DNA of 11,111 bases. It comes from a virus. Lineage: Duplodnaviria; Heunggongvirae; Uroviricota; Caudoviricetes. The notes beneath the pieces are model-generated. The model was not told where the DNA came from. It did no database searches and saw only the letters and a program-made list of their open reading frames with translations. Shown one piece after another: positions 1 to 10,910 of the stretch. Each line of letters opens with the position of its first letter. Position 1 is the stretch's first letter. Made by a program: the position numbers and the translations under genes. The stretch lies in the IMG/VR virus record IMGVR_UViG_2563366932_000013; one strand, written 5' to 3'.

Positions 1-1158
1 ATGCTCACCGTTAAGCAGATTGAAGCAGCAAAGCCGAAAGAAAAACCATACCGCCTACTCGATGGTAATGGCCTGTACCTTTATGTCCCTGTATCAGGGA
101 AAAAGGTATGGCAGCTTCGCTACAAGATTGACGGTAAGGAGAAAATCCTGACCGTCGGAAAATATCCACTTATGACTTTGCAGGAGGCAAGAGATAAAGC
201 ATGGACCGCGAGGAAAGACATCTCGGTTGGCATCGATCCGGTAAAAGCGAAAAAGGCTTCGTCTAACAACAATTCCTTTAGTGCGATTTACAAGGAATGG
301 TACGAGCACAAGAAGCAAGTCTGGTCAGTAGGCTATGCAACTGAACTTGCAAAAATGTTTGATGACGACATTTTACCTATCATCGGCGGCCTTGAAATTC
401 AGGATATTGAGCCGATGCAACTGCTGGAAGTAATCCGCAGATTTGAAGATCGCGGTGCAATGGAGCGAGCCAACAAAGCCCGCAGAAGATGCGGCGAGGT
501 TTTCCGTTACGCTATTGTCACTGGTAGGGCTAAATATAACCCGGCACCTGACCTTGCTGACGCCATGAAGGGATACCGCAAGAAGAACTTCCCGTTTCTT
601 CCTGCAGACCAGATCCCTGCATTCAACAAAGCACTGGCAACATTTTCAGGAAGTATCGTATCGCTCATTGCGACCAAAGTTTTACGCTACACAGCCCTAA
701 GAACGAAAGAGCTTCGTTCCATGCTATGGAAGAACGTCGATTTTGAAAACAGGATTATCACCATCGACGCCAGTGTGATGAAGGGACGCAAAATTCATGT
801 GGTCCCGATGTCAGACCAGGTGGTTGAACTTCTCACTACGCTAAGCTCCATCACCAAACCAGTATCAGAGTTTGTTTTTGCCGGGCGCAACGATAAGAAG
901 AAGCCAATCTGCGAGAACGCGGTTCTACTTGTGATCAAACAAATCGGCTATGAGGGTCTAGAAAGCGGTCACGGATTCAGGCATGAATTCAGCACGATTA
1001 TGAACGAGCACGAATGGCCTGCTGACGCTATTGAAGTGCAACTGGCACATGCCAACGGCGGATCTGTGCGCGGTATTTACAACCATGCTCAGTATCTCGA
1101 TAAGCGCAGAGAAATGATGCAGTGGTGGGCGGATTGGCTTGATGAGAAGGTAGAGTGA
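1..1158 (+). CDS. int: Tyrosine integrase, P4-type (N-terminal arm-binding domain of the DUF4102 kind)
   Basis: 385-aa ORF from ATG at 1 to TGA at 1156-1158. N-terminus AKPKEKPYRLLDGNGLYLYVPVSGKKVWQLRY matches the P4-family integrase arm-binding signature as I recall it. C-terminal part has HGFRHEF and a tyrosine near the C-terminus (IYNHAQY), as expected for tyrosine recombinases. Confidence 0.9.
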   Translation: MLTVKQIEAAKPKEKPYRLLDGNGLYLYVPVSGKKVWQLRYKIDGKEKILTVGKYPLMTLQEARDKAWTARKDISVGIDPVKAKKASSNNNSFSAIYKEWYEHKKQVWSVGYATELAKMFDDDILPIIGGLEIQDIEPMQLLEVIRRFEDRGAMERANKARRRCGEVFRYAIVTGRAKYNPAPDLADAMKGYRKKNFPFLPADQIPAFNKALATFSGSIVSLIATKVLRYTALRTKELRSMLWKNVDFENRIITIDASVMKGRKIHVVPMSDQVVELLTTLSSITKPVSEFVFAGRNDKKKPICENAVLLVIKQIGYEGLESGHGFRHEFSTIMNEHEWPADAIEVQLAHANGGSVRGIYNHAQYLDKRREMMQWWADWLDEKVE

Positions 1159-1309
1159 TCCGCCTTAACAACTATCGAAGAGCACAAAGCCTTGTGTGTC
1201 TCATAGGCTATGAAACAATCATTTTACATGGTTACTTCACTACTTCCGCACAATATGATATCGTTCACAATCTAAAAACATTAATAATTTATCCATTACC
1301 GCGGTTAAT

Positions 1310-1336
1310 GCCCGTCGCTTCCAACGGGCTTTTTTG
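1310..1336 (+). terminator. Rho-independent terminator downstream of int
   Basis: Perfect 6-bp stem GCCCGT (1310-1315) / ACGGGC (1324-1329) with an 8-nt loop, followed by TTTTTT (1330-1335), about 150 nt after the int stop. Confidence 0.5.
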
Positions 1337-1397
1337 TAAATTATATTTTTATTACCTTATATTAATATTGGTAATATGTCTGCATGATGTTTTATAT

Positions 1398-2174
1398 TTA
1401 TTGCGTGAGCTTCGCATGATAGCTGGAGCATCTCTTGTCATCACTAATTAGCTCCGCTTTATCCGTTCTTGCCCATATTATATTTCTTTTTATTATTTTT
1501 GCTGGATTACCGGCTGCTGCACACATAGATGGCACATCTTTAGTTACAATACTCCCATACCCAATGACAGATCCGCTTCCAACAGATACTCCTTTCATTA
1601 TAGAGACATTTCTCCCTACCCATACGTAACTAGATATAATGATATCTTTTGCCCAATTAATCCTTTTTTTGCTATGAATATCAAATATAGGATGCCCATC
1701 TGATGCACGCAAAATAACATCTCTTGCTATCATGCAGTCATGGCCAATTGTAACATTGCACTTATCAGTGACGACTTCAAAACCTGCACCTATTGTCGTT
1801 CTTCTACCGATAATAACTTTTGAACCTTTTGTTGCGACAATATCACCTTTAATCTTACTGTTTTTATGTATTCTTACGTAATTATTATCACCCCTAAATA
1901 TTACGGTAAGCCATCGACACTCAACATCATCTTCTATAATAAGTTTGTTATTGTTTCCATTGAACTGAACTTTATTCTCTTTGCTATTTACAAGATCTCC
2001 ACATACAAAAACATTACCTGACCCATTATCATCAACGGAAAACGAGTCTTGAGTCTTGAGTCTTGAGTCTTGAGTCTTGAGTCTTGAGTCTTGAGTCTTG
2101 AGTCTTGAGTCTTGAGTCTTGAGTCTTGAGTCTTGAGTCTTGAGTCTTGAGTCTTGAGTCTTGAGTCTTAACAT
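1398..2174 (-). CDS. neuO: NeuO-like polysialic acid O-acetyltransferase (hexapeptide-repeat acyltransferase with N-terminal RLKTQDS heptad repeats)
   Basis: 258-aa ORF, ATG = complement of 2172-2174. C-terminal half (VWVGRNVSIMKGVSVGSGSVIGYGSIVTKDVPSMCAAAGNPAKIIK) is typical of left-handed beta-helix hexapeptide acyltransferases. N-terminus is ML followed by (RLKTQDS)x6 encoded by the AAGACTC tract, matching what I recall of K1 NeuO carried by prophage CUS-3. Putative SD AGGA about 5 nt upstream of the ATG. Confidence 0.85.
   Translation of the reverse strand: MLRLKTQDSRLKTQDSRLKTQDSRLKTQDSRLKTQDSRLKTQDSFSVDDNGSGNVFVCGDLVNSKENKVQFNGNNNKLIIEDDVECRWLTVIFRGDNNYVRIHKNSKIKGDIVATKGSKVIIGRRTTIGAGFEVVTDKCNVTIGHDCMIARDVILRASDGHPIFDIHSKKRINWAKDIIISSYVWVGRNVSIMKGVSVGSGSVIGYGSIVTKDVPSMCAAAGNPAKIIKRNIIWARTDKAELISDDKRCSSYHAKLTQ
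2044..2169 (-). repeat. Perfect tandem heptanucleotide repeat, (AAGACTC)x18 on the coding strand (GAGTCTT on +), inside the neuO 5-prime coding region
   Basis: Counted directly: 126 bp from 2044 to 2169 is 18 uninterrupted copies of GAGTCTT. 126 is divisible by 3, so the tract keeps the downstream acetyltransferase domain in frame with the ATG at 2174. Confidence 0.95.
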
Positions 2175-2190
2175 ATTAGTATCCTACGTT

Positions 2191-2219
2191 ATTTTACCAC
2201 TAGTTACTTTTCTTGTCAT
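2191..2219 (-). promoter_or_regulatory. Putative sigma70 promoter for neuO with extended -10
   Basis: On the minus strand: -35 ATGACA (complement of 2214-2219), 17-nt spacer, TGg-TAAAAT extended -10 (complement of 2191-2199), about 17 nt upstream of the neuO ATG. Hexamer matching only; no experimental support. Confidence 0.4.
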
Positions 2220-2327
2220 TAAAAAGCATTTAAATTTTTATATTTAATTTCGTTGACGTCAATGTTTTTTGCCAATGTACTTACTTCTTTATGTGATCAG
2301 TTCATATTTTTGACGCCAACGAAACAT

Positions 2328-5273
2328 TTAGTGCTTCCCTTCTATTAAGTCTAACCTAGCTTTTATTCTTTCTATTTCTCTGCGCTGCCATGCTGCCTCG
2401 ATATAGAATAAGAGATCAGGTCTGACCCCCCATCTAGATCCTGCTGGCGTTATTTCAACGCGCTCAATGATGTCTTCCATTACCATCACTGGATTATCAT
2501 CCTCATCAACAATGATGCTCCCGTCATTATCAGTCAGCGGCATTTCCCTTTGGCCAGTAATGACGTCATCATATACTGCGGGATAATCGTCATAGCAAAG
2601 AAAGGCATAGCGGCATGTTGTGCTTTCTTCTTCCATGAGTCCGTGAGAAATAAGAACATCACGAAGTTGCTGCGCGATTACACCATGATGTATCCTCGCC
2701 CCTTCTTCCCCCTTTATAGCGACAGCGTTCAGCCATTTATAAGCGATATACCTGACGTCACCCCAGGCATCCAGCAATGTTTCGTCAGGAGAGACCGGCT
2801 CTGTCTTTAATGTTCCGTCACTGGTAACCACAGGATTGGAGCCAAGATAAACTATCGAGAACCTGTTTCCCGGACCACCAAGAGCATTTACATTATCAAG
2901 ATAAGGTTTAACATCTCCGTTCTCAAAAAGATGTTCGAGTGCGTTATATACCGCGCGACGTGGAGTACTGCTTCTGGAACCATGCAACGTTATCATTGCA
3001 CCATCTGCTGAAGACGTTGTTTCACCGCCGCTAACGATTAATCTCTGAGCGGTAACATCATCAGACGGTACTTTCTTCGCAATAATGGCGTAATTACCCT
3101 CAAGTTTGACTTCCGCGCGAACTTGTCCTGATGTACCTGCATGGACAGTCAGTGACTGGACGGCAACATCATCTGTGAAATCAACGGGTACAGGAACCGT
3201 CCTCACGCCTGACGTCGACATAAAAGTAGGAAGCGTTCTGTTAGGAGTGGCTCCGTAGACAAAATCCCTTGAAACAAATTCTTCCTGTTTAATTTTCACC
3301 CTGAAACAATACAAATCAGCCGGGTGACCATCGTGAACATAAGGATATTTTCTGTTGTTATCCCCTATGCTCCATGGGTTTAGAAAGTCTTCCCCACCGA
3401 AAATGTAGTACAGCCAGTTGTCTTTGATACAAACTGAACCAACACCAACCGCAGAGTTAACTATTCCGCCCTGATAAATCTGATCAGTAACATTAACCCA
3501 CTCTACATTATCCAGACTCCACTCATTGACGTTAACTCTGGTCATAAATGTTCTTGGATAGTTTCCTGCATAACGGTTATCAGGTTCTCCTCCTTCCCAC
3601 TCACCAAATGCGCGCTCACTGCCAAAAATAATCAGCTCATCGCCAACTTTGGCAAAAGGAAGGTTTGAGTGATGAACATTATTTGGGAAGCGAAGAGAAT
3701 TCCATGATGTACCTAAATCAGAGCTTCTGTGCAATGAACTACCGGGTTGAGTACTTAATGTCCCCCTGGTCGTCAGATACAGAATGCCATCATAATATTT
3801 TACACATGGCTCAGATGCATTCGCCTCATATTCTGCAGGTATGCGTCTGCGAACAAAGCTACCAGGAGAACCGAAAGCATCAGAGAAATAGAGTATCCCA
3901 AGCTCGCGTGGACCAATATCACCATTATGGTAGCCAACAGCAAAACTGTTATCGCTAATCGTCGCAAAACTGTGAATCTCAGTAACAGGAGTGCTTCCGT
4001 CAACAAAAGAAGGAATAGTTCCAAGACTGGTTTTTCTCCATGGTGACGAGTGAAATGATGTACCAAAACTCCAGTATCTACCCTCGTTATTCTGATCCAC
4101 ATCCTGGGTATTTTGCGTCGTAACTGTAAAAGTATTTTTATCAATAACAGTAGTCACCGTCATATTCCCGGTAACACCTGTAACACCAGAGTTTGAGAAG
4201 TTGACAAAATCACCAGCAAATAATCCGTGATCAGTAATGCGAATATAAGCGACTTGCTGATTTGCTGCTTTCGTTATACCACCATAAACGCGAAGGCTGC
4301 GACTCATTGGGCGATCCCACAACTCTGCAACCTGCAGTTTATTTCCGCTCACGGTCCGCGTCTCAATTACAGCAAAAAGGCGATTTCTGACAACCCCCAT
4401 ACTCATGCAGTGATAGTTAACTGTGGGATAGTTTTCATGTAAATCTGTAAGCCATTCCGGCGTTGTCCAGGTCTTCCCGTCATCTCCTGAGCGAACCCAT
4501 GCAACATGGAGGTTATTTACACCATGGCGGTCTCCAGCCATAAAAGGCGCATAGATGACATTGTCATATACAAACGTTTTATCCTGCGTCCAGGCGTTGT
4601 ACCACGGTGTATCTGTAATTTTAAATAACTCTCCCTGGATAAAATCTTCAGAAACATAAAAAAGAGGCTGACCCGGTATTCTCTCAAATAAAAAACGAGC
4701 ATTTTTAAATCGACTGACATCTGGAAGAGTTGATACTTTAAAAGTAAGCCCTCGCCCATCTATCTTTTCACCACCTGTTGCAACAGAAAGTAATTCTGAT
4801 AGAGCTGATGTATCATCATGAACACCATCACCAATAGCCCCCCAACCTCTTACATCATAACTGTCTCTCCATCTTGCTATCTGAAGTTTTGGGTATTTAT
4901 TCGCTCCATCTGGGTCTTCTAATTGCTGCCGTAGTTGATCAGGATCATACTTCAGCACATTCTGGAAATAGAACTGCTGTACGCCATACGCATCGTACAC
5001 AGCCATAGAATGGCCTTGCACAGTTACGAACTTGGCAATCCGTCCGTTATATACAGGGTAACCAGCAGCGTTAATGATGATTGGTTGCGAAACAGGAACG
5101 TGAGAGCCGTCTTCGTTCTCTACATAAACCTGAATCCGGTTTTCAGGATTTACCGGGTCAGTGTCAATTTTACCGATATAAATTTTGCCATTGGCTACGG
5201 CTTTAAAAGAACGCGCCATAGTGAAGAGTTGCGAAGGCATCGATACAATCACATTGGCTGTAATGTCTGTCAT
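2328..5273 (-). CDS. Tailspike endosialidase (endo-N-acetylneuraminidase) with P22 gp9-like head-binding N-terminal domain and C-terminal intramolecular chaperone-like domain
   Basis: 981-aa ORF, ATG = complement of 5271-5273, SD GGAG 8 nt upstream. First ~115 aa ([43 protein letters not shown]...VLKYDPDQ) closely match the P22 tailspike head-binding domain as I remember it. Two sialidase Asp-box motifs ([16 protein letters not shown]). C-terminus (...[10 protein letters not shown]...[29 protein letters not shown]) resembles the autoproteolytic chaperone domain of endosialidase tailspikes. Confidence 0.85.
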
Positions 5274-5330
5274 TTAATTTGCTCCAGATGCAAAGAATCG
5301 CCGCAGCATGGCCACGGTGAATTTTGGGCA

Positions 5331-5354
5331 TAAAAAAACCCAGCCGAAGCTGGG
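5331..5354 (-). terminator. Rho-independent terminator (minus strand) between the upstream gene stub and the tailspike gene
   Basis: Read on the minus strand: stem CCCAGC/GCTGGG (5339-5344 and 5349-5354) with a 4-nt loop, followed by a 7-nt U tract (complement of A run 5332-5338). Confidence 0.5.
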
Positions 5355-5373
5355 TCGTTGCGTTGGTTATCTG

Positions 5374-5582
5374 TCAGTAATTATGTACTGAAGGAGGTAA
5401 TTCTTTATTCTTAAGTCTCATCCATGCGGAAAGATTCGTTGGTCCGTCTGGCTCATTGATATCAACATCTCGTGTGTGATTGATTAAAACGTCTCTCGCC
5501 ATATCGATAATACGGGAGAACTCATAACCGCAGTCATGACATCTGCCGGAATAGTTCGATTGAATTTGTTTTAGCGCCGGAT
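5374..5582 (-). pseudogene. 3-prime fragment (about 69 codons) of a gene whose 5-prime part was lost at the IS911 junction
   Basis: The six-frame ORF 5374..5631 runs into the IS: its first 16 codons are IS-end sequence, so only the C-terminal portion ([32 protein letters not shown]...SVHNY) is non-IS DNA. I do not recognise the family. Confidence 0.45.
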
Positions 5583-5654
5583 TGAAGTGGTTTACTGAAT
5601 TTGGCCACCTGAACAGAGGTGATATGCTCACCTCAGAACAACACAGGTGCCATA

Positions 5655-6802
<1,148 letters not shown>

Positions 6803-6832
6803 CTCGGTGGCCAGTTTTTGTTGACCACTTCA

Positions 6833-7003
6833 ATGCAACAGTTCGCTATTGCAGGGGCGGCATCGGTTCGCCCTTTCAACCCGATTTTATCGGTACAGCA
6901 TTCACGAAAAAACATTTTAACCGGAGCAGACTTTAAACAACCAAGAATGAAAAGCTTGCTCGAAAAGCTTTGGGATATTTTGAAACAACAAGGCCGTCCA
7001 TGA
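6833..7003 (+). CDS. cIII: cIII-like protein
   Basis: 56-aa ORF whose ATG (6833-6835) immediately follows the IS right end. N-terminus MQQFAIAG resembles lambda CIII MQYAIAG, and a central SLLE...DIL.Q.G.P stretch is similar. It sits first in an operon followed by erf, as in lambdoid/P22 pL operons. Confidence 0.5.
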   Translation: MQQFAIAGAASVRPFNPILSVQHSRKNILTGADFKQPRMKSLLEKLWDILKQQGRP

Positions 7004-7158
7004 GTTTTACGGATAACTGGTCAGACGAAGAATTCATTCGTCAGATAAAAGAATTAATCGGTAACGAAGGAGATATTCATGTCACTTGCAACCACAGTGA
7101 AGGAGAGCAAGTTACAGAGACGCATGTACACGCAGAAAGCTCTCTGGTATCGCCATAA
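7000..7158 (+). CDS. Small hypothetical protein (52 aa) at the position that kil occupies in the P22 pL operon
   Basis: ATG at 7000 overlaps the cIII-like stop (ATGA). Acidic small protein MSFTDNWSDEEFIRQIKELIGNEGDIHV... Positional inference only; the sequence is not recognised. Confidence 0.4.
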   Translation: MSFTDNWSDEEFIRQIKELIGNEGDIHVTCNHSEGEQVTETHVHAESSLVSP

Positions 7159-7259
7159 TGGTGACCGCGAAGGAATGCGGGTATGCCTTAATTTGTCCCG
7201 AGTCGAAGTATTAAATCAGCGTTATTTCCTTGGGCCGTGTCCATTCTGAGAGCAATCAT

Positions 7260-7865
7260 ATGAGCAAAGAATTTTACGCAAGACTGGCAGCTATTCAGGA
7301 GAATCTGAACGCGCCAAAGAATCAGTACAACTCATTCGGCAAATATAAATACAGAAGCTGCGAAGATATTCTTGAAGGCGTTAAGCCGTTACTGAACGGT
7401 CTGTTTTTATCAATCAGCGATGAAGTTGTGTTGATTGGTGATCGGTATTACGTGAAAGCCACGGCAACTATTACCGATGGCGAAAACAGTCATACGGCAA
7501 CCGCTCTTGCACGAGAGGAAGAAAGCAAGAAAGGAATGGATTCTGCACAAGTTACGGGAGCTACAAGCTCTTATGCACGCAAGTATTGCCTCAATGGTTT
7601 GTTCGGCATTGATGATGCGAAAGATGCAGATACAGACGAGCATAAACATCAGCAGAACGCAGCAGCAAAGCAATCAAAACCATCACTTACACCTGAACAG
7701 GTTCTAAAAGCATTCACTGACGCAGCAATGCAGAAAAACACCGTAGAAGAGCTTAAACAGGCGTTCGCCAAAGCGTGGAAGATGCTCGAAGGGACGCCGG
7801 AGCAGCACAAAGCGCAGGACGTTTACAACATCAGACGAGACGAATTAGAAGGGGCAACTGCTTAA
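7260..7865 (+). CDS. erf: Erf single-strand annealing protein (essential recombination function)
   Basis: From ATG at 7260 the protein begins MSKEFYARLAAIQENLNAPKNQYNSFGKYKYRSCEDILEGVKPLL..., matching P22 Erf as I remember it almost residue for residue in the N-terminal domain. Stop TAA at 7863-7865. Confidence 0.9.
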   Translation: MSKEFYARLAAIQENLNAPKNQYNSFGKYKYRSCEDILEGVKPLLNGLFLSISDEVVLIGDRYYVKATATITDGENSHTATALAREEESKKGMDSAQVTGATSSYARKYCLNGLFGIDDAKDADTDEHKHQQNAAAKQSKPSLTPEQVLKAFTDAAMQKNTVEELKQAFAKAWKMLEGTPEQHKAQDVYNIRRDELEGATA

Positions 7866-8248
7866 TGGCACATTCGATTACAGTAAGACTAAACAAACCC
7901 GCAAGAGAGTTTCAGGGCGGGGAAAATATCGGATTCAACATCCGTGCTGGCGTTCAGTATTACGATCGCCAGACAAAAAAGAAAGAATGGACAAACTACA
8001 GCGCCGTTGTATTTGCCAAGCCGGGAGCGCAAGCGGATTACTATCGTAGCGTTCTGGTTGAAGGAGGCATTGTAGAAATTACCGGAGAAAACATCAGGGT
8101 TGATGTTTATCAGGGGCAAAATGGTCAATCAATCACTCTTGAATTACTGAATGCAAAGATTGGATTTGCAACTTCAGGAAACAGCCAACAGCAGCAAAGT
8201 AGCAATCATCAAAATAATCCTGAATACGACGATTCCATCCCATTCTGA
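7865..8248 (+). CDS. Phage SSB-like OB-fold protein with acidic C-terminal tail
   Basis: 127-aa ORF, ATG overlapping the erf stop (TAATG). Ends ...QQQQSSNHQNNPEYDDSIPF, echoing the E. coli SSB C-terminal tip DDDIPF preceded by a Gln-rich linker. The N-terminal part has an OB-fold-like pattern (EWTNYSAVVFAKPG...VEITGE). Confidence 0.65.
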   Translation: MAHSITVRLNKPAREFQGGENIGFNIRAGVQYYDRQTKKKEWTNYSAVVFAKPGAQADYYRSVLVEGGIVEITGENIRVDVYQGQNGQSITLELLNAKIGFATSGNSQQQQSSNHQNNPEYDDSIPF

Positions 8249-8271
8249 TTTAGAAAAATAAGGATTTAATT

Positions 8272-8568
8272 ATGCCAGCGCCTTTGTATGGTGCGGATGA
8301 CCCGCGCCGCTGTTCCGGCAATTCCGTATCGGAGGTGCTGGATAAATTCAGAAAAAACTACGATCGAATAATGTCTCTACCGCAGGAAACGAAAGAGGAA
8401 AAGGAATTTCGCCACTGTATATGGCTTGCAGAGAAAGAAGAACGCGAGCGAATTTACCAGACATCAATCCGACCATTCCGCAAAGCCACATATACCCACT
8501 TCCCTGAATATATCGACCCGCGCCTGCGTAATTACCGCTCACGCTATGGCGCTATCAGTAATGACTGA
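8272..8568 (+). CDS. Hypothetical protein (98 aa), basic and helical
   Basis: ORF with SD AAGGA 8 nt upstream of ATG 8272. Its position after erf/ssb and its size are similar to where anti-RecBCD abc genes lie in P22, but I cannot confirm this by sequence. Confidence 0.5.
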   Translation: MPAPLYGADDPRRCSGNSVSEVLDKFRKNYDRIMSLPQETKEEKEFRHCIWLAEKEERERIYQTSIRPFRKATYTHFPEYIDPRLRNYRSRYGAISND

Positions 8569-8662
8569 GGAATTTACCATGAGAGGACTTGCTTAAGAGA
8601 AAGAGTTTCGGTTCTGTTAATGACAACAAATATCTGAATGCGATGTGGCGGAGTGGGAAGAA

Positions 8663-9181
8663 ATGAAACAAATGTCACTAATTGAGATGGATGGTTTTCT
8701 GAAAGGTAAATGCATCCCAAGTGATTTAAAGGTTAACGAAACAAACGCTGAATACCTTGTCCGTAAGTTCGGTGAACTTGAATCAAAACTGGAAACGGCG
8801 TTGCGGGAGTGTAGTTCTGCTGGAATCACGATTGATAACCTTGAGGCTAAATGCGCGAAGATGGCTGCTGAAAATACCTCACTTAAGCAATCTGAGAAGG
8901 AATTTAATGACTTTTGTCGTGAGGAGTTTAGCGAATGGGAAGATGATGTTACTGAAACCCCAGCCACCGATGCTTTTCTGGCTGAAGTGCGGGCGCAGGG
9001 GGTGGATGCTGCTATAGAAGCTGCAAAAAATCTGGTGGCCCAAGAATATGAGTATAAGGATTTCAAAGCGGCGCAGAGTGATTGCTGTATGCACCCTGGT
9101 TCAGACCTGGTAGGGAAGGTTGAAATGACTGAGTGGTTAGTTGACTTTGCTGCCCAGCTTCGCAAAGGAGGCAACCAGTGA
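8663..9181 (+). CDS. Hypothetical protein (~172 aa), acidic, predicted helical/coiled-coil
   Basis: Long ORF in the same orientation as the operon. Start taken as ATG 8663; the track starts at the GTG at 8645, which is also possible. Not recognised. Confidence 0.5.
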   Translation: MKQMSLIEMDGFLKGKCIPSDLKVNETNAEYLVRKFGELESKLETALRECSSAGITIDNLEAKCAKMAAENTSLKQSEKEFNDFCREEFSEWEDDVTETPATDAFLAEVRAQGVDAAIEAAKNLVAQEYEYKDFKAAQSDCCMHPGSDLVGKVEMTEWLVDFAAQLRKGGNQ

Positions 9182-9477
9182 CTGTATGTCTTATTGATAA
9201 ACGTCGACGTGGGCAACAAATACCATCTGTTGAAATGCCGAATCACACATGGTTTTGCGTACTTGATATCGATGGTATGGATTCGTTGGTTGACACTCGT
9301 CATTACTGCGATACCGCAACAGCTACTCCGGCGAAAGCAAAGAAAATGGCTGCTCTGATAGAAAACTGGACTCCACCTGATGGTTGGTGCAATGGGAATG
9401 ATCGAGATTGGCACGAAAAAATGAAGGGCTATATCTGCGATTTTTTACGTAAATGCAACGGCTTCAGGGGGATGTGA
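9178..9477 (+). CDS. Hypothetical Cys-rich protein (99 aa)
   Basis: GTG start at 9178 overlapping the previous stop (GTGA), with a strong SD AAAGGAGG 6 nt upstream. Six cysteines. Not recognised. Confidence 0.5.
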   Translation: MTVCLIDKRRRGQQIPSVEMPNHTWFCVLDIDGMDSLVDTRHYCDTATATPAKAKKMAALIENWTPPDGWCNGNDRDWHEKMKGYICDFLRKCNGFRGM

Positions 9478-9478
9478 T

Positions 9479-10051
9479 ATGACCAAAATTAACTATCAGG
9501 CACTGCGTGAGGCGGCAGAACGTGCAATTCCGGCAATGGAACGCCTGTTAATGTTGCCAGTTGATGATGATTTGTTAAGTGAACAGGAACTTAAGGATTA
9601 CGGTGTGGATATTGATGCGCTCAACGCCTTCAAATTTCTGACCGGACCAGAAACCGTGCTGGCGCTGCTGGATGAACGGGAAAGAAACCAGCAATACATC
9701 AAACGCCGCGACCAGGAGAACGAGGAAATTGCGCTAACGGTAGGGAAGCTGCGCGTTGAGCTGGAAGCTGCAGAGAAGCGCATTGCAGAACTGGAAGCCG
9801 AACCTGTAAGCCAAACTTACAAGTTGAACGAGCTGTCGGGCAACTATCCGGTAACTCCGGATGGTTGGATAAGCTGTAGTGAGCGAATGCCCGCTCAAGA
9901 TGATTGGATTTTAATTTATTCAAAGCACGGCGAGTATATGGCAGGACAGGTACAAGGGGAATACGTGGAGTTGAGCGACGGCACTTTATCGTGGTTAGGG
10001 AACGCCTTGTACTGGATGCCTCTACCGGAACCGCCGCAGGAGGTTAATTGA
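9479..10051 (+). CDS. Ead/Ea22-like protein with C-terminal DUF551-like domain
   Basis: ATG 9479 with SD AGGGGGA. N-terminus MTKINYQALREAAERA and C-terminal W...SERMPAQDDWILIY...WMPLPEPP pattern resemble prophage Ead/Ea22-family DUF551 proteins as I recall them. Confidence 0.6.
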   Translation: MTKINYQALREAAERAIPAMERLLMLPVDDDLLSEQELKDYGVDIDALNAFKFLTGPETVLALLDERERNQQYIKRRDQENEEIALTVGKLRVELEAAEKRIAELEAEPVSQTYKLNELSGNYPVTPDGWISCSERMPAQDDWILIYSKHGEYMAGQVQGEYVELSDGTLSWLGNALYWMPLPEPPQEVN

Positions 10052-10245
10052 TGGTCTCCTTCGCGAAATATACGATTATTGACTGGATAGCATTCATTCA
10101 GGTTTTGCTCATCTGGTTTTATATGGCTTACAGGAGTGGACAGTGGATTGTCAGTGTAGCCTGTAGCAATGGATGGCGTTGGTGGAACCGAAAGAATAAA
10201 AAAAGCGCTGGCCTTGGCTTCGTTTTACGAAGCATTCAATCTTAA
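10051..10245 (+). CDS. Small hydrophobic protein (64 aa), one predicted transmembrane helix
   Basis: ATG 10051 overlapping the upstream stop, SD GGAGG 7 nt upstream. Hydrophobic stretch IIDWIAFIQVLLIWFYMAY followed by a Trp/Arg-rich tail. Confidence 0.4.
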   Translation: MVSFAKYTIIDWIAFIQVLLIWFYMAYRSGQWIVSVACSNGWRWWNRKNKKSAGLGFVLRSIQS

Positions 10246-10328
10246 CAGTCTTCAGCCTGGTTCTGTCGTTGTAGTCACCACTCAAAGCGGCATGACGATA
10301 CAAATTCACAAGCCAAAGGAGGAAGGTC

Positions 10329-10613
10329 GTGGCTAACCTGCAACTTGCCGTTAAAGGTGAATACTTCGATGCCATGATTCGCGGAGAGAAAACGGAAGAG
10401 TATCGCCTGTGTAATGACTACTGGAATAAGCGAATTATGTTCCGCGAGTATGACCGCCTGATTATCACAAAGGGATATCCGAAGCGCGACGATTCCAGCC
10501 GCAGAATTGACGTCCCGTATGACGGATATGAAATCAAGACAATCACACATCCGCACTTCGGCGATAAACCGGTAAAGGTGTTCGCTATAAAGGTGAATAT
10601 CGACAATGAATGA
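10329..10613 (+). CDS. ASCH / DUF3850-like (PUA-like beta-barrel) protein
   Basis: GTG start 10329 with a strong SD AAAGGAGGAAGG upstream. LQLAVKGEYFDAMIRGEKTEEYR... resembles ASCH-domain prophage proteins from memory. Confidence 0.5.
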   Translation: MANLQLAVKGEYFDAMIRGEKTEEYRLCNDYWNKRIMFREYDRLIITKGYPKRDDSSRRIDVPYDGYEIKTITHPHFGDKPVKVFAIKVNIDNE

Positions 10614-10614
10614 T

Positions 10615-10670
10615 AATCCTCGCACTCGCGGGGATTTCTTTTATCTGAACTCGCTACGGCGGGTTTTGTT
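10615..10670 (+). terminator. Tandem hairpin / U-tract terminator-like region after the ASCH-like gene
   Basis: Hairpin AATCCTCGC-ACTC-GCGGGGATT (10615-10636) followed by TCTTTTAT. A second short hairpin CTCGC-TACG-GCGGG (10650-10663) is followed by TTTTGTTTT. Confidence 0.4.
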
Positions 10671-10685
10671 TTATGGAGATGATAA

Positions 10686-10853
10686 ATGCACTTCCGAGTC
10701 ACAGGTGAATGGAATGGAGAGCCATTCAACAGAGTTATCGAAGCAGAGAACATCAACGACTGCTATGACCACTGGATGCTGTGGGCGCAGATAGCACATG
10801 CAGACGTAACTAATATTCGAATTGAAGAACTGAAAGAACACCAAGCCGCCTGA
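10686..10853 (+). CDS. Small hypothetical protein (55 aa)
   Basis: Not in the ORF track (below its length cut-off). ATG 10686 with SD GGAGA 6 nt upstream; hand-translated as MHFRVTGEWNGEPFNRVIEAENINDCYDHWMLWAQIAHADVTNIRIEELKEHQAA, stop TGA 10851-10853, ending inside a terminator hairpin. Confidence 0.4.
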   Translation: MHFRVTGEWNGEPFNRVIEAENINDCYDHWMLWAQIAHADVTNIRIEELKEHQAA

Positions 10854-10866
10854 TGGCGGTTTTTTA
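10844..10866 (+). terminator. Rho-independent terminator
   Basis: Stem AGCCGCC / GGCGGTT (10844-10850 and 10855-10861) with loop TGAT, followed by a T run to 10865. Confidence 0.55.
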
Positions 10867-10910
10867 TTGCCTGATTTGCAGGTTCGATTCCCTATTCGGA
10901 GATAGCACTC

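Follow-up and report, generated by a model that had tools for sequence, protein, structure and literature searches.

A neuO lysogenic-conversion locus in a CUS-3-type prophage remnant: limits of the neuO indel and a candidate RNA hairpin behind the endosialidase gene

Phase-variable O-acetylation of the K1 capsule by the neuO product is known from published work to influence resistance to phages, killing by neutrophils, sensitivity to serum and the epitopes relevant to vaccines. The literature describes NeuO as a trimeric hexapeptide-repeat acetyltransferase that O-acetylates the K1 capsule, with slipped-strand mispairing in a 5′ AAGACTC repeat as the switch of its expression. The structure and the mechanism of the variable-number tandem repeat (VNTR) are known and heptads raise activity (PMC3046976), while acetyl-CoA-dependent O-acetylation of K1 polysialic acid together with on/off switching was reported for a gene nearly identical to the one analysed here (PMC3046976, PMC13001214). 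neuO is carried by 43.5% of 8,659 K1 genomes and protects from phage and neutrophils (PMC13001214); protection from K1 phage was also reported in PMC9659370. For endosialidase-bearing K1 phages, the acetylated capsule is a poorer substrate according to the literature, so that the prophage masks the receptor recognised by its own tailspike, encoded just upstream of neuO.

Accessory modifiers of a surface polysaccharide that alter the receptor of the phage's own tailspike are also found in other P22-like phages, and the comparison called for in the original prediction placed Sf6 oac and P22 gtrABC in the same slot between tailspike and int/att (tailspike-oac-int-attP in Sf6 and tailspike-gtrCBA-attP-int in P22). 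Like neuO, such genes are often of low GC, as with P22 gtrC (0.318). However, NeuO is a soluble hexapeptide acetyltransferase, unlike Oac, which is a membrane protein of the acyltransferase-3 type, and unlike the Gtr proteins, which form a glucosylation system. NeuO targets the capsule rather than the O-antigen, and neuO follows the tailspike gene in the same direction, while oac and gtr converge on theirs. Phase variation of P22 gtr involves Dam and OxyR, unlike that of neuO, which relies on an intragenic VNTR. The sialate O-acetyltransferases of capsule loci (OatWY of Neisseria meningitidis and neuO-like genes) share the left-handed beta-helix fold family and the substrate class, but they are chromosomal members of capsule operons with no VNTR and no phage context. 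neuO also resembles a phage moron in the sense of Juhala and Hendrix, being an extra, prophage-expressed gene with a promoter candidate of its own, a composition distinct from that of the neighbouring phage genes, and neighbours that adjoin each other in some relatives. By contrast with that concept, no dedicated terminator was found for neuO and its neuO-less relatives look like secondary deletions.

With a probability of about 90%, we identify positions 1159-2327 of the window (the whole analysed stretch of 11,111 nucleotides) as the neuO lysogenic-conversion, or moron, locus of a CUS-3-type P22-like prophage of E. coli K1. Positions 1100-2400 are 99.5% identical at the DNA level to CUS-3 (CP000711), where the annotation reads int, neuO with its poly(psi) repeat and siaK1, and the region was present in 158 of 5426 complete E. 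coli genomes. The naming of neuO in the original prediction was correct, as judged by this annotation, a Pfam Hexapep match and a match to the 3JQY crystal structure over residues 17-258 (E = 9.7e-161); the protein was also 100% identical to E. coli cluster P0001 and matched OatWY (2WLC) with E = 4.6e-31. The locus shares with CUS-3 the gene, the AAGACTC VNTR, the argW-side prophage end and the position between int and siaK1, neuO lying directly downstream of the endosialidase tailspike gene on the same (minus) strand (Table 1). Eighteen heptads are present, against 19 in RS218 (OFF), and as 18 is a multiple of three, neuO is in frame and phase ON. The prophage itself is a remnant of ~10.9 kb in which ISEc52 stands in place of CUS-3 5781-36316; such decay has been reported, as has a second site between pgl and bioA (PMC9659370). 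An attP between int and neuO was ruled out, given that the attL core of CP000711 lies upstream of int, that int, neuO and tailspike are contiguous in chromosomes, and that no tRNA or tRNA fragment was found. The established picture of this known and well-studied contingency locus is left unchanged by the re-analysis. What is added are the limits of neuO-specific DNA (an 845-bp indel flanked by an 11-bp repeat) as opposed to DNA of the tailspike flank, a new interpretation of a motif pair, now seen as an inverted repeat able to fold into a hairpin, support for descent of neuO from capsule-locus acetyltransferases, and a second, repeat-free pairing of an endosialidase with a neuO-like gene in Atlantibacter.

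Table 1. Features of the neuO locus and its neighbours, in window coordinates
Feature	Position	Strand	Remarks
CUS-3 integrase (IntS type)	1-1158	+	Pfam Phage_integrase, Phage_int_M, Arm-DNA-bind_3; GC 0.478; int at 192-1349 in CP000711
int-downstream segment common to other P22-like phages (HK620, N7, HF4s)	1159-1203		Phage matches end at window 1194-1203
AT-rich int-neuO spacer	1204-1397		GC 0.304; CUS-3-lineage specific, kept in neuO-less relatives
Intrinsic terminator of int	1310-1329	+	GCCCGT-loop-ACGGGC then TTTTTT; sole terminator-like site in 1000-2600
Left copy of perfect 11-bp direct repeat, TTTTATATTTA	1390-1400	+	Overlaps neuO stop codon
neuO, polysialic-acid O-acetyltransferase	1398-2174	-	258 aa, in frame, intact ORF; left-handed beta-helix (hexapeptide) fold
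poly-psi VNTR	2044-2169	-	18 perfect AAGACTC copies, six RLKTQDS heptads; TRF period 7, 18.0 copies, 100% match
Shine-Dalgarno AGGA	2182-2185	-	7 nt upstream of ATG at 2174-2172; read from sequence
Promoter candidate P1	2191-2219	-	ATGACA (2219-2214), 17-nt spacer, TAAAAT (2196-2191), TG at 2199-2198; 10/12 consensus positions
Weaker promoter candidate P2	2234-2262	-	TTGACG, 17-nt spacer, AAAAAT; 9/12 positions
Right copy of 11-bp direct repeat, TTTTATATTTA	2235-2245	+	neuO-less "del-B" alleles retain exactly one copy
Proximal arm of 15-nt inverted repeat, TTTCGTTGACGTCAA	2248-2262	.	Contains palindrome 2253-2262
Distal arm of inverted repeat, TTGACGCCAACGAAA	2310-2324	.	Contains second motif; ~3 nt past tailspike stop
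Endosialidase tailspike siaK1, P22-type head-binding domain	2328-5273	-	Pfam End_beta_propel 1e-233, End_tail_spike, Head_binding, Peptidase_S74; CP000711 annotation

The extent of DNA that comes and goes with neuO was read from relatives that lack the gene. These keep 1159-1370/1400 and 2214/2236-2327 almost unchanged, so that both AT-rich flanks, which had been counted as part of the neuO unit, are retained without it. Two junctions were found, namely that of the single-copy "del-B" alleles (L003, L098-L100, L114, L115 and L119) and a second one at 1370|2214. One model would have neuO entering as an 845-bp cassette (1390/1401-2234/2245) that included P1 and duplicated its TTTTATATTTA target, with the single-copy alleles being ancestral. 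This would account for the perfect direct repeat that brackets ORF, Shine-Dalgarno sequence and P1 (a repeat of at least 11 bp between the two flanks arose in 80 of 5000 shuffles, p about 0.016), and for single-copy alleles at two or more prophage integration sites and in 3 viral contigs. However, neuO is found on both flank haplotypes (2297 T/G, 2780 T/C) while neuO-less alleles occur on G/C only, indicating that the losses are nested within neuO-positive diversity. In addition, the 1370|2214 junction retains 2214-2234, which the cassette model makes cassette-internal, and must therefore be a deletion. In IAI39, a neuO-positive allele occupies the ybhB site where both neuO-less types are also found, slippage deletion between short direct repeats would yield an identical product, and no transposase or recombinase is associated. 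We thus consider entry as a cassette unlikely; the haplotype nesting and the two junctions indicate that the neuO-less alleles are secondary deletions, and an ancestral empty site was judged the less likely origin for them.

Two related motifs, TTGACGTCAA at 2253-2262 and TTGACGCCAA(C) at 2310-2320, were present exactly where the original prediction had located them. Their common pattern TTGACGYCAA, chosen after seeing the data, gave 3 strand-hits against 0.05 expected, a number reached in 0 of 200 shuffles. Each motif lies within one arm of an inverted repeat (I1) with arms 93% complementary and 47 nt apart. RNA of the sense (minus) strand is predicted to fold into a 16-bp stem that pairs perfectly when G.U is allowed (-21.1 kcal/mol, z = -4.55) and is followed by UUAAAUAU, and RNA of the plus strand into a stem with a mismatch (z = -3.48). 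With its 47-nt loop and no U tract, the element is not a canonical terminator, and no intrinsic rho-independent terminator was matched on the minus strand between tailspike and neuO. The arms were identical across 20 viral contigs. In ~30 sequences (these 20 plus ~10 chromosomal or phage loci), the distal arm was invariant and the proximal arm differed by a single base in L003 only, where T2259C changes a sense-strand U-A pair to U.G. The proximal site of L003 then reads TTGACGCCAA, and the palindrome is thus not conserved. Such near-invariance means that the hairpin gains no support from covariation. CRP-like half-sites (TATGA-N5-TCACA) seen by eye in the hairpin loop were rejected, the spacing being off by one base.

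We reasoned about the motifs in two ways. As an operator pair, ~62 bp or six turns apart, they would allow a host or phage transcription factor to control the promoter of neuO, perhaps through a DNA loop, which is close to the regulator sites originally proposed for neuO. Their strong local over-representation agrees with this, as do the (nearly) palindromic core of each site, reminiscent of dimeric HTH operators, the overlap of the proximal site with a -35-like hexamer, and the in vitro shift of a neuO promoter fragment by DsdC (PMC9659370), although the in vivo DsdC ChIP peak at the promoter was very modest (PMC9659370). Nevertheless, the sites did not co-occur with the gene across homologous cassettes, nor were they lost or drifting without it. 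Neither lies within the neuO indel, and every neuO-less relative examined, comprising 7 chromosomal or phage loci and 3 viral contigs, retains both. The inverted repeat is absent from the Atlantibacter cassette (L005), the sole divergent homologue of the cassette that turned up, and the 86%-identical gene there is preceded by an unrelated TTGACT-17-TAGAAT promoter. Thus, of the two findings named beforehand as arguments against an acquired cassette, uniform composition and absence of the motifs from homologous cassettes, the second was observed. Further copies are missing from the complete 40-kb CUS-3 genome, the palindrome does not survive in L003, and with the flanking CGAAA included the inverted match reaches 15 nt, as is typical of a stem. 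An operator pair is therefore improbable, and retention without neuO, absence in the Atlantibacter cassette and lack of recurrence in CUS-3 indicate that the motif pair belongs to the 3′ flank of the tailspike gene. Our best reading is that the inverted repeat would form a 3′-UTR stem-loop of the tailspike or late transcript, with a role in RNA stability, in processing or in partly insulating neuO. Speaking for it are the length of the inverted repeat, the stem that is perfect on the sense strand but mismatched on the antisense strand, the sense-strand U.G pair produced by the L003 change and a 12-bp GC-rich hairpin of unrelated sequence that the Atlantibacter phage carries in the corresponding place, right behind its endosialidase stop codon. 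The endosialidase-neuO pairing recurs at argW, ybhB-bioA and torT in E. coli, and in a VNTR-less form in Atlantibacter. We propose, quite tentatively and with more doubt than confidence, that the inverted repeat is an RNA element tuning late read-through into neuO and that endosialidase and neuO make up a conserved "cut-and-mask" module of two genes, mobile among prophage backbones and across genera, both of which may be new. If so, the hairpin would couple or insulate receptor cutting by the endosialidase and receptor masking by neuO.

A promoter of its own with an extended -10 had also been assigned to neuO. The candidate P1, of the extended -10 type and within the 845-bp indel, is a match to the consensus only and an unproven promoter; its predicted start at ~2184 falls inside the Shine-Dalgarno sequence, which would give a leader of ~10 nt. 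P2 would have a leader of ~50 nt that includes the Shine-Dalgarno sequence, but a poor -10; one half of the proximal motif makes up the -35 hexamer of P2, so the proximal arm may happen to serve as a -35-like TTGACG as well. As a class, promoter-like matches were not enriched here (8 versus 5.6 +/- 3.0 expected). Transcription in the lysogen would most likely start from a local sigma-70 promoter, either P1 or P2, and the primary neuO literature may already contain a mapped promoter or a description of the inverted repeat. No minus-strand terminator was found in 1000-2600, and since the int terminator lacks a U tract when read on that strand, neuO is without a canonical terminator of its own. 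Matches to known RNA families in the same interval were at chance level (E of at least 0.36). The host LysR regulator DsdC activates neuO ~7-fold according to ChIP, EMSA and qRT-PCR, with a ChIP signal "directly downstream of neuO", a location matching the spacer 1204-1397 here, and a binding pattern likened to that of H-NS (PMC9659370). Most of the DsdC binding was on the AT-rich coding sequence and the 3′ flank. This pattern fits counter-silencing of AT-rich DNA, with H-NS as putative silencer and DsdC as putative counter-silencer.

Homologues of neuO point outside the phage. Those of 44% identity sit directly after neuB-neuC-neuA-DUF6716-polysialyltransferase on contigs of GC 0.33-0.36, and a 60% homologue adjoins DUF6716; the 44% homologue is not from E. 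coli and had no match among GTDB species representatives. From these homologues of 44-60% identity, none of them a close relative, we infer a donor lineage among capsule-locus acetyltransferases from which neuO would descend. In an Atlantibacter prophage, a 64%-identical endosialidase gene is immediately followed by the 86%-identical, heptad-free neuO-like gene, DNA homology being limited to the ORF with unrelated flanks, and the gene forms a low-GC island (0.39 versus 0.48-0.56). Together with the conversion slot, the capsule-locus homologues and this copy support the foreign origin of an acquired accessory gene, as had been suggested.

The original prediction had described the segment as much more AT-rich than integrase, tailspike and early genes, and sliding GC and codon usage bore this out. 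The GC content of 1159-2327 was 0.351 against 0.462 in the remainder of the window, ~4.4 sd under the mean of the 7616 equal-length windows clear of the region (mean 0.460, sd 0.025, minimum 0.424). The lowest-GC 1169-bp window started at 1209 (GC 0.343), and the actual low-GC zone ran from ~1204 to 2345. Its most AT-rich parts were the two non-coding flanks, that beside the tailspike gene (2175-2327) having a GC of 0.275, while neuO itself had 0.371. GC3 was 0.298 in neuO (0.266 without the repeats), compared with 0.527 in int, 0.373 in the tailspike gene and 0.43-0.54 in early genes. The dinucleotide signature after removal of base composition was not exceptional (delta* 107 versus 74 +/- 20 for same-length segments); the difference therefore lies in base composition and codon third positions, and the signature was dropped as an independent sign of foreignness. 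neuO may owe its AT-richness to O-acetyltransferases that end AT-rich polysialic-acid capsule loci, and the flanks would be lineage-specific intergenic DNA that stays with the endosialidase gene even in the absence of neuO. That low GC is instead no foreign mark, about a third of the interval being intergenic regulatory DNA and the rest a small gene whose codons are only weakly selected, agrees with spacers that are the most AT-rich parts and persist without neuO, with the ordinary dinucleotide signature and with the lowish tailspike GC3, and it still holds for the flanks, but for the coding part it is largely refuted and overall very doubtful, given a neuO GC3 far under that of every other gene of the window, an Atlantibacter copy that is likewise a low-GC island amid GC 0.5-0.6, and nearest distant homologues in capsule loci of GC 0.33-0.36.

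The int-neuO spacer was found in 178 E. coli genomes, all CUS-3-like. HH97, at 86.7% identity in the spacer, was discounted as a divergent cassette, as frameshifts occur throughout its locus and the divergence is probably due to assembly error. On the integrase side, 1159-1203 has a GC of 0.47 and thus lies outside the AT-rich zone.

The interval 1159-2327, bounded exactly by the stop codons of int and the tailspike gene, is the neuO contingency locus already known from CUS-3, the prophage of E. coli K1 RS218, with all testable defining features present. The segment is 99.5% identical to CUS-3 of RS218 (CP000711), in which the matching segment carries the annotations int, neuO poly(psi) repeat and siaK1 endosialidase, and the region was found in 158 of 5426 complete E. 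coli genomes. The neuO product matched the NeuO crystal structure 3JQY (E=1e-160) and meningococcal OatWY (5e-31). The 18 perfect copies of the AAGACTC heptanucleotide at the 5' end of neuO, a number divisible by three, leave the reading frame open (phase ON) and encode six RLKTQDS heptads. Slippage of this repeat toggles neuO translation, with enzyme activity rising with more heptads (PMC3046976), and NeuO protects from K1 phages and neutrophils (PMC9659370, PMC13001214). Window 1-5582 corresponds to CUS-3 192-5780 and window 7000-10891 to CUS-3 36317-40207 (attR end), while the ~30.5 kb of CUS-3 from ant through kil has been replaced by IS3-family ISEc52, an identical junction being found in 5 genomes only. 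Because all virion, lysis and replication genes were lost by this replacement, the window is a decayed, defective CUS-3 remnant of ~10.9 kb in which the early genes adjoin the tailspike; it still has int, an in-frame neuO and a full endosialidase gene. Exactly such CUS-3 decay has been described (PMC9659370). The locus itself is already known, and the remaining new possibilities are modest.

Positions of features in the window and of related genes and modules in other loci
Feature	Sequence	Position	Strand	Remark
int	window	1-1158	+	
neuO	window	1398-2174	-	258-aa product
AAGACTC tract	window	2044-2169		
tailspike	window	2328-5273	-	
ISEc52	window	5583-6999		orfA 5619-5957, orfB 5984-6802
TTTTATATTTA	window	1390-1400, 2235-2245		first copy overlaps neuO stop codon
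TTTCGTTGACGTCAA	window	2248-2262		proximal arm
TTGACGCCAACGAAA	window	2310-2324		distal arm
AGCGCAGAGAAAT	window	1103-1115, 2374-2386		inverted repeat
MKQSFYMVTSLLPHNMISFTI	window	1210-1275	+	21-codon ORF
44% neuO-like gene	L007	6001-6672		
44% neuO-like gene	L008	5348-6019		
44% neuO-like gene	L010	2004-2675		
44% neuO-like gene	L009	240-911		
endosialidase module	L002, L003, L012, L014, L015			at ybhB-bioA
endosialidase module	L098, L100			at torT

The distinct AT-rich composition noted for this interval was borne out, with a GC of 0.351 versus 0.462 in the remainder of the window, while non-overlapping windows of the same 1169 bp never fell below 0.424 (mean 0.460, sd 0.025); of all 1169-bp windows in the sequence, the one beginning at 1209 has the lowest GC. 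On a finer scale the GC is reduced from ~1204 to ~2345, and the 45 bp directly after int (1159-1203) have a GC of 0.47 and are homologous to int-downstream DNA of HK620, N7 and similar phages. The lowest values lie in the non-coding flanks (0.304 in 1204-1397 and 0.275 in 2175-2327). The GC3 of neuO was 0.298 (0.266 with the repeat tract left out); int reached 0.527, the tailspike 0.373 and the early genes 0.43-0.54. The dinucleotide signature of the interval was not exceptional after base composition was removed.

Related prophages without neuO were found at ybhB-bioA and torT, all with an 84-bp remnant of a CUS-3-type int 3' end. Window 1370 is joined to 2214 in the del-A junction (L002, L012, L014), and the del-B junction (L003, L098-L100; viral contigs L114, L115, L119) has one copy left of the 11-bp repeat TTTTATATTTA, of which neuO-containing DNA has two; a repeat this long between both flanks arose in 1.6% of shuffles. 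Comparison of these alleles favours deletion as their probable polarity, because IAI39 is neuO-positive at the same ybhB site, 2214-2234 is kept in del-A but absent in del-B, and neuO-positive alleles vary at 2297 (T or G) and at 2780 (T or C), where all neuO-less alleles are G/C. Whichever the polarity, the neuO-specific unit is ~845 bp in length and consists of the ORF, its Shine-Dalgarno sequence and promoter candidate P1. Where neuO is missing, the AT-rich DNA at 1204-1389 and 2246-2345 is still there, indicating that these flanks are part of the tailspike and int-remnant context rather than of neuO. The module made up of the 3' remnant of int (window 1075 onwards), the spacer, optional neuO, the inverted repeat and the endosialidase gene occupies three different integration sites in chromosomes, indicating that the phage tailspike end recombined onto different int/att modules; its recombination breakpoint lies near the codon for the int catalytic tyrosine.

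Among the neuO relatives obtained by protein search followed by contig look-ups, three were informative. A 44%-identical homologue, from a source that is not E. coli, lies directly after neuB, neuC, neuA, DUF6716 and an alpha-2,8-polysialyltransferase gene as the last gene of a polysialic-acid capsule locus, on AT-rich contigs of GC 0.33-0.36 (L007, L008, L010), and a 60% homologue adjoins a DUF6716 gene (L006). The third, in JGI metagenome contig L005 (1-3313) and also in an Atlantibacter sp. MAG (L018), is 86% identical in amino acids, has a GTG start and lacks the heptad VNTR; it immediately follows, in the same orientation, an endosialidase tailspike 64% identical in amino acids to that of the window, and is itself followed by umuDC at the prophage end. 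DNA homology to CUS-3 is limited to the neuO-like ORF, which is a low-GC island too (0.39 versus 0.48-0.56), with an unrelated promoter candidate of its own (TTGACT-17-TAGAAT). Combined, the capsule-locus homologues and the Atlantibacter pairing suggest that capsule-locus polysialate O-acetyltransferases are the most plausible ancestors of neuO, and the neuO-endosialidase pairing would most plausibly have arisen more than once or be long-standing. Sf6 oac and P22 gtrABC occupy the same slot between tailspike and int/att, and P22 gtrC is AT-rich like neuO (GC 0.318), but these genes are convergent with the tailspike whereas neuO is co-directional with it. The capsule-locus homologues, the low-GC Atlantibacter copy and this slot agree with the original prediction of an independently acquired accessory gene, which was correct. 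The Atlantibacter pair suggests polysialic-acid-targeting phages, and perhaps polysialic acid capsules, outside E. coli; a portable 'cut-and-mask' module of endosialidase and neuO, reaching Atlantibacter without phase variation, is a modest possibility.

The extended -10 promoter candidate that had been proposed was found on the - strand (P1: ATGACA 2219-2214, a 17-nt spacer and TG-n-TAAAAT ending at 2191); promoter-like matches as a class showed no enrichment in this AT-rich DNA. P1 lies inside the neuO indel and 16 nt separate its -10 element from the ATG, placing the predicted start at ~2184 inside the AGGA Shine-Dalgarno (2185-2182) with a leader of ~10 nt. The weak candidate P2 has a predicted leader of ~50 nt, a poor -10 and a -35-like TTGACG that comes from the proximal arm of an inverted repeat. 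Deleting both dsdC copies lowered neuO mRNA more than 7-fold, and DsdC binding at the neuO promoter is only modest (PMC9659370); the GC 0.30 spacer 1204-1397 corresponds to the DsdC signal downstream of neuO in that study. We infer that the AT-rich island may be an H-NS target relieved by DsdC.

Two motifs upstream of neuO, confirmed at 2253-2262 and 2310-2320, had been proposed as a regulator binding site pair. A repeat search showed that each forms the core of one arm of a 15-nt inverted repeat (TTTCGTTGACGTCAA and TTGACGCCAACGAAA) with 14 of 15 positions complementary and 47 nt in between. On the - strand, sense for both tailspike and neuO, the lone mismatch becomes a G.U pair and the predicted RNA forms a 16-bp stem (-21.1 kcal/mol, z = -4.55) beginning ~3 nt past the tailspike stop codon, while the + strand fold keeps an A.C mismatch (z = -3.48). 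The distal arm is invariant in all ~30 sequences, 10 of them neuO-less, and the sole variant of the proximal arm, T2259C in L003, destroys the DNA palindrome while the sense-RNA U-A becomes U.G. The arms are absent from the Atlantibacter cassette, in which an unrelated 12-bp GC-rich hairpin occupies the same position after the tailspike stop. Given that the arms persist without neuO, are absent from Atlantibacter and form a sense-strand stem, we tentatively read the repeat as a stem-loop in the 3' flank of the tailspike/late transcript (probability roughly 0.4); that this hairpin, lying between the endosialidase gene and neuO, is functional is a modest possibility. A canonical terminator was ruled out because of the long loop and the absence of a U tract. 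An operator pair is unlikely: TTGACGYCAA is over-represented locally, but the arms have no further copy anywhere else in CUS-3, and the comparison with homologous cassettes, suggested together with the regulator proposal, did not bear out regulator sites for neuO, the motifs being missing in Atlantibacter and kept in neuO-less relatives. A repeat without function is the other alternative.

Flanking the entire AT-rich zone on both sides are the copies of AGCGCAGAGAAAT, an exact 13-nt inverted repeat for which chance alone would give roughly 0.01; they lie on the sense strands of int and tailspike, 40-43 nt before each stop codon, and both encode RRE. The 21-codon ORF MKQSFYMVTSLLPHNMISFTI, which lies ahead of the int terminator in the int-neuO spacer, has no convincing Shine-Dalgarno sequence and is probably not a gene. 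Finally, an endosialidase prophage near yfgI in E. coli A33 (L013) matches the query over its final ~90 bp alone (window 2360-2450 in the tailspike C-terminal coding region) and has lysis genes downstream instead of neuO, indicating that endosialidase genes occur in at least two unrelated E. coli prophage architectures.
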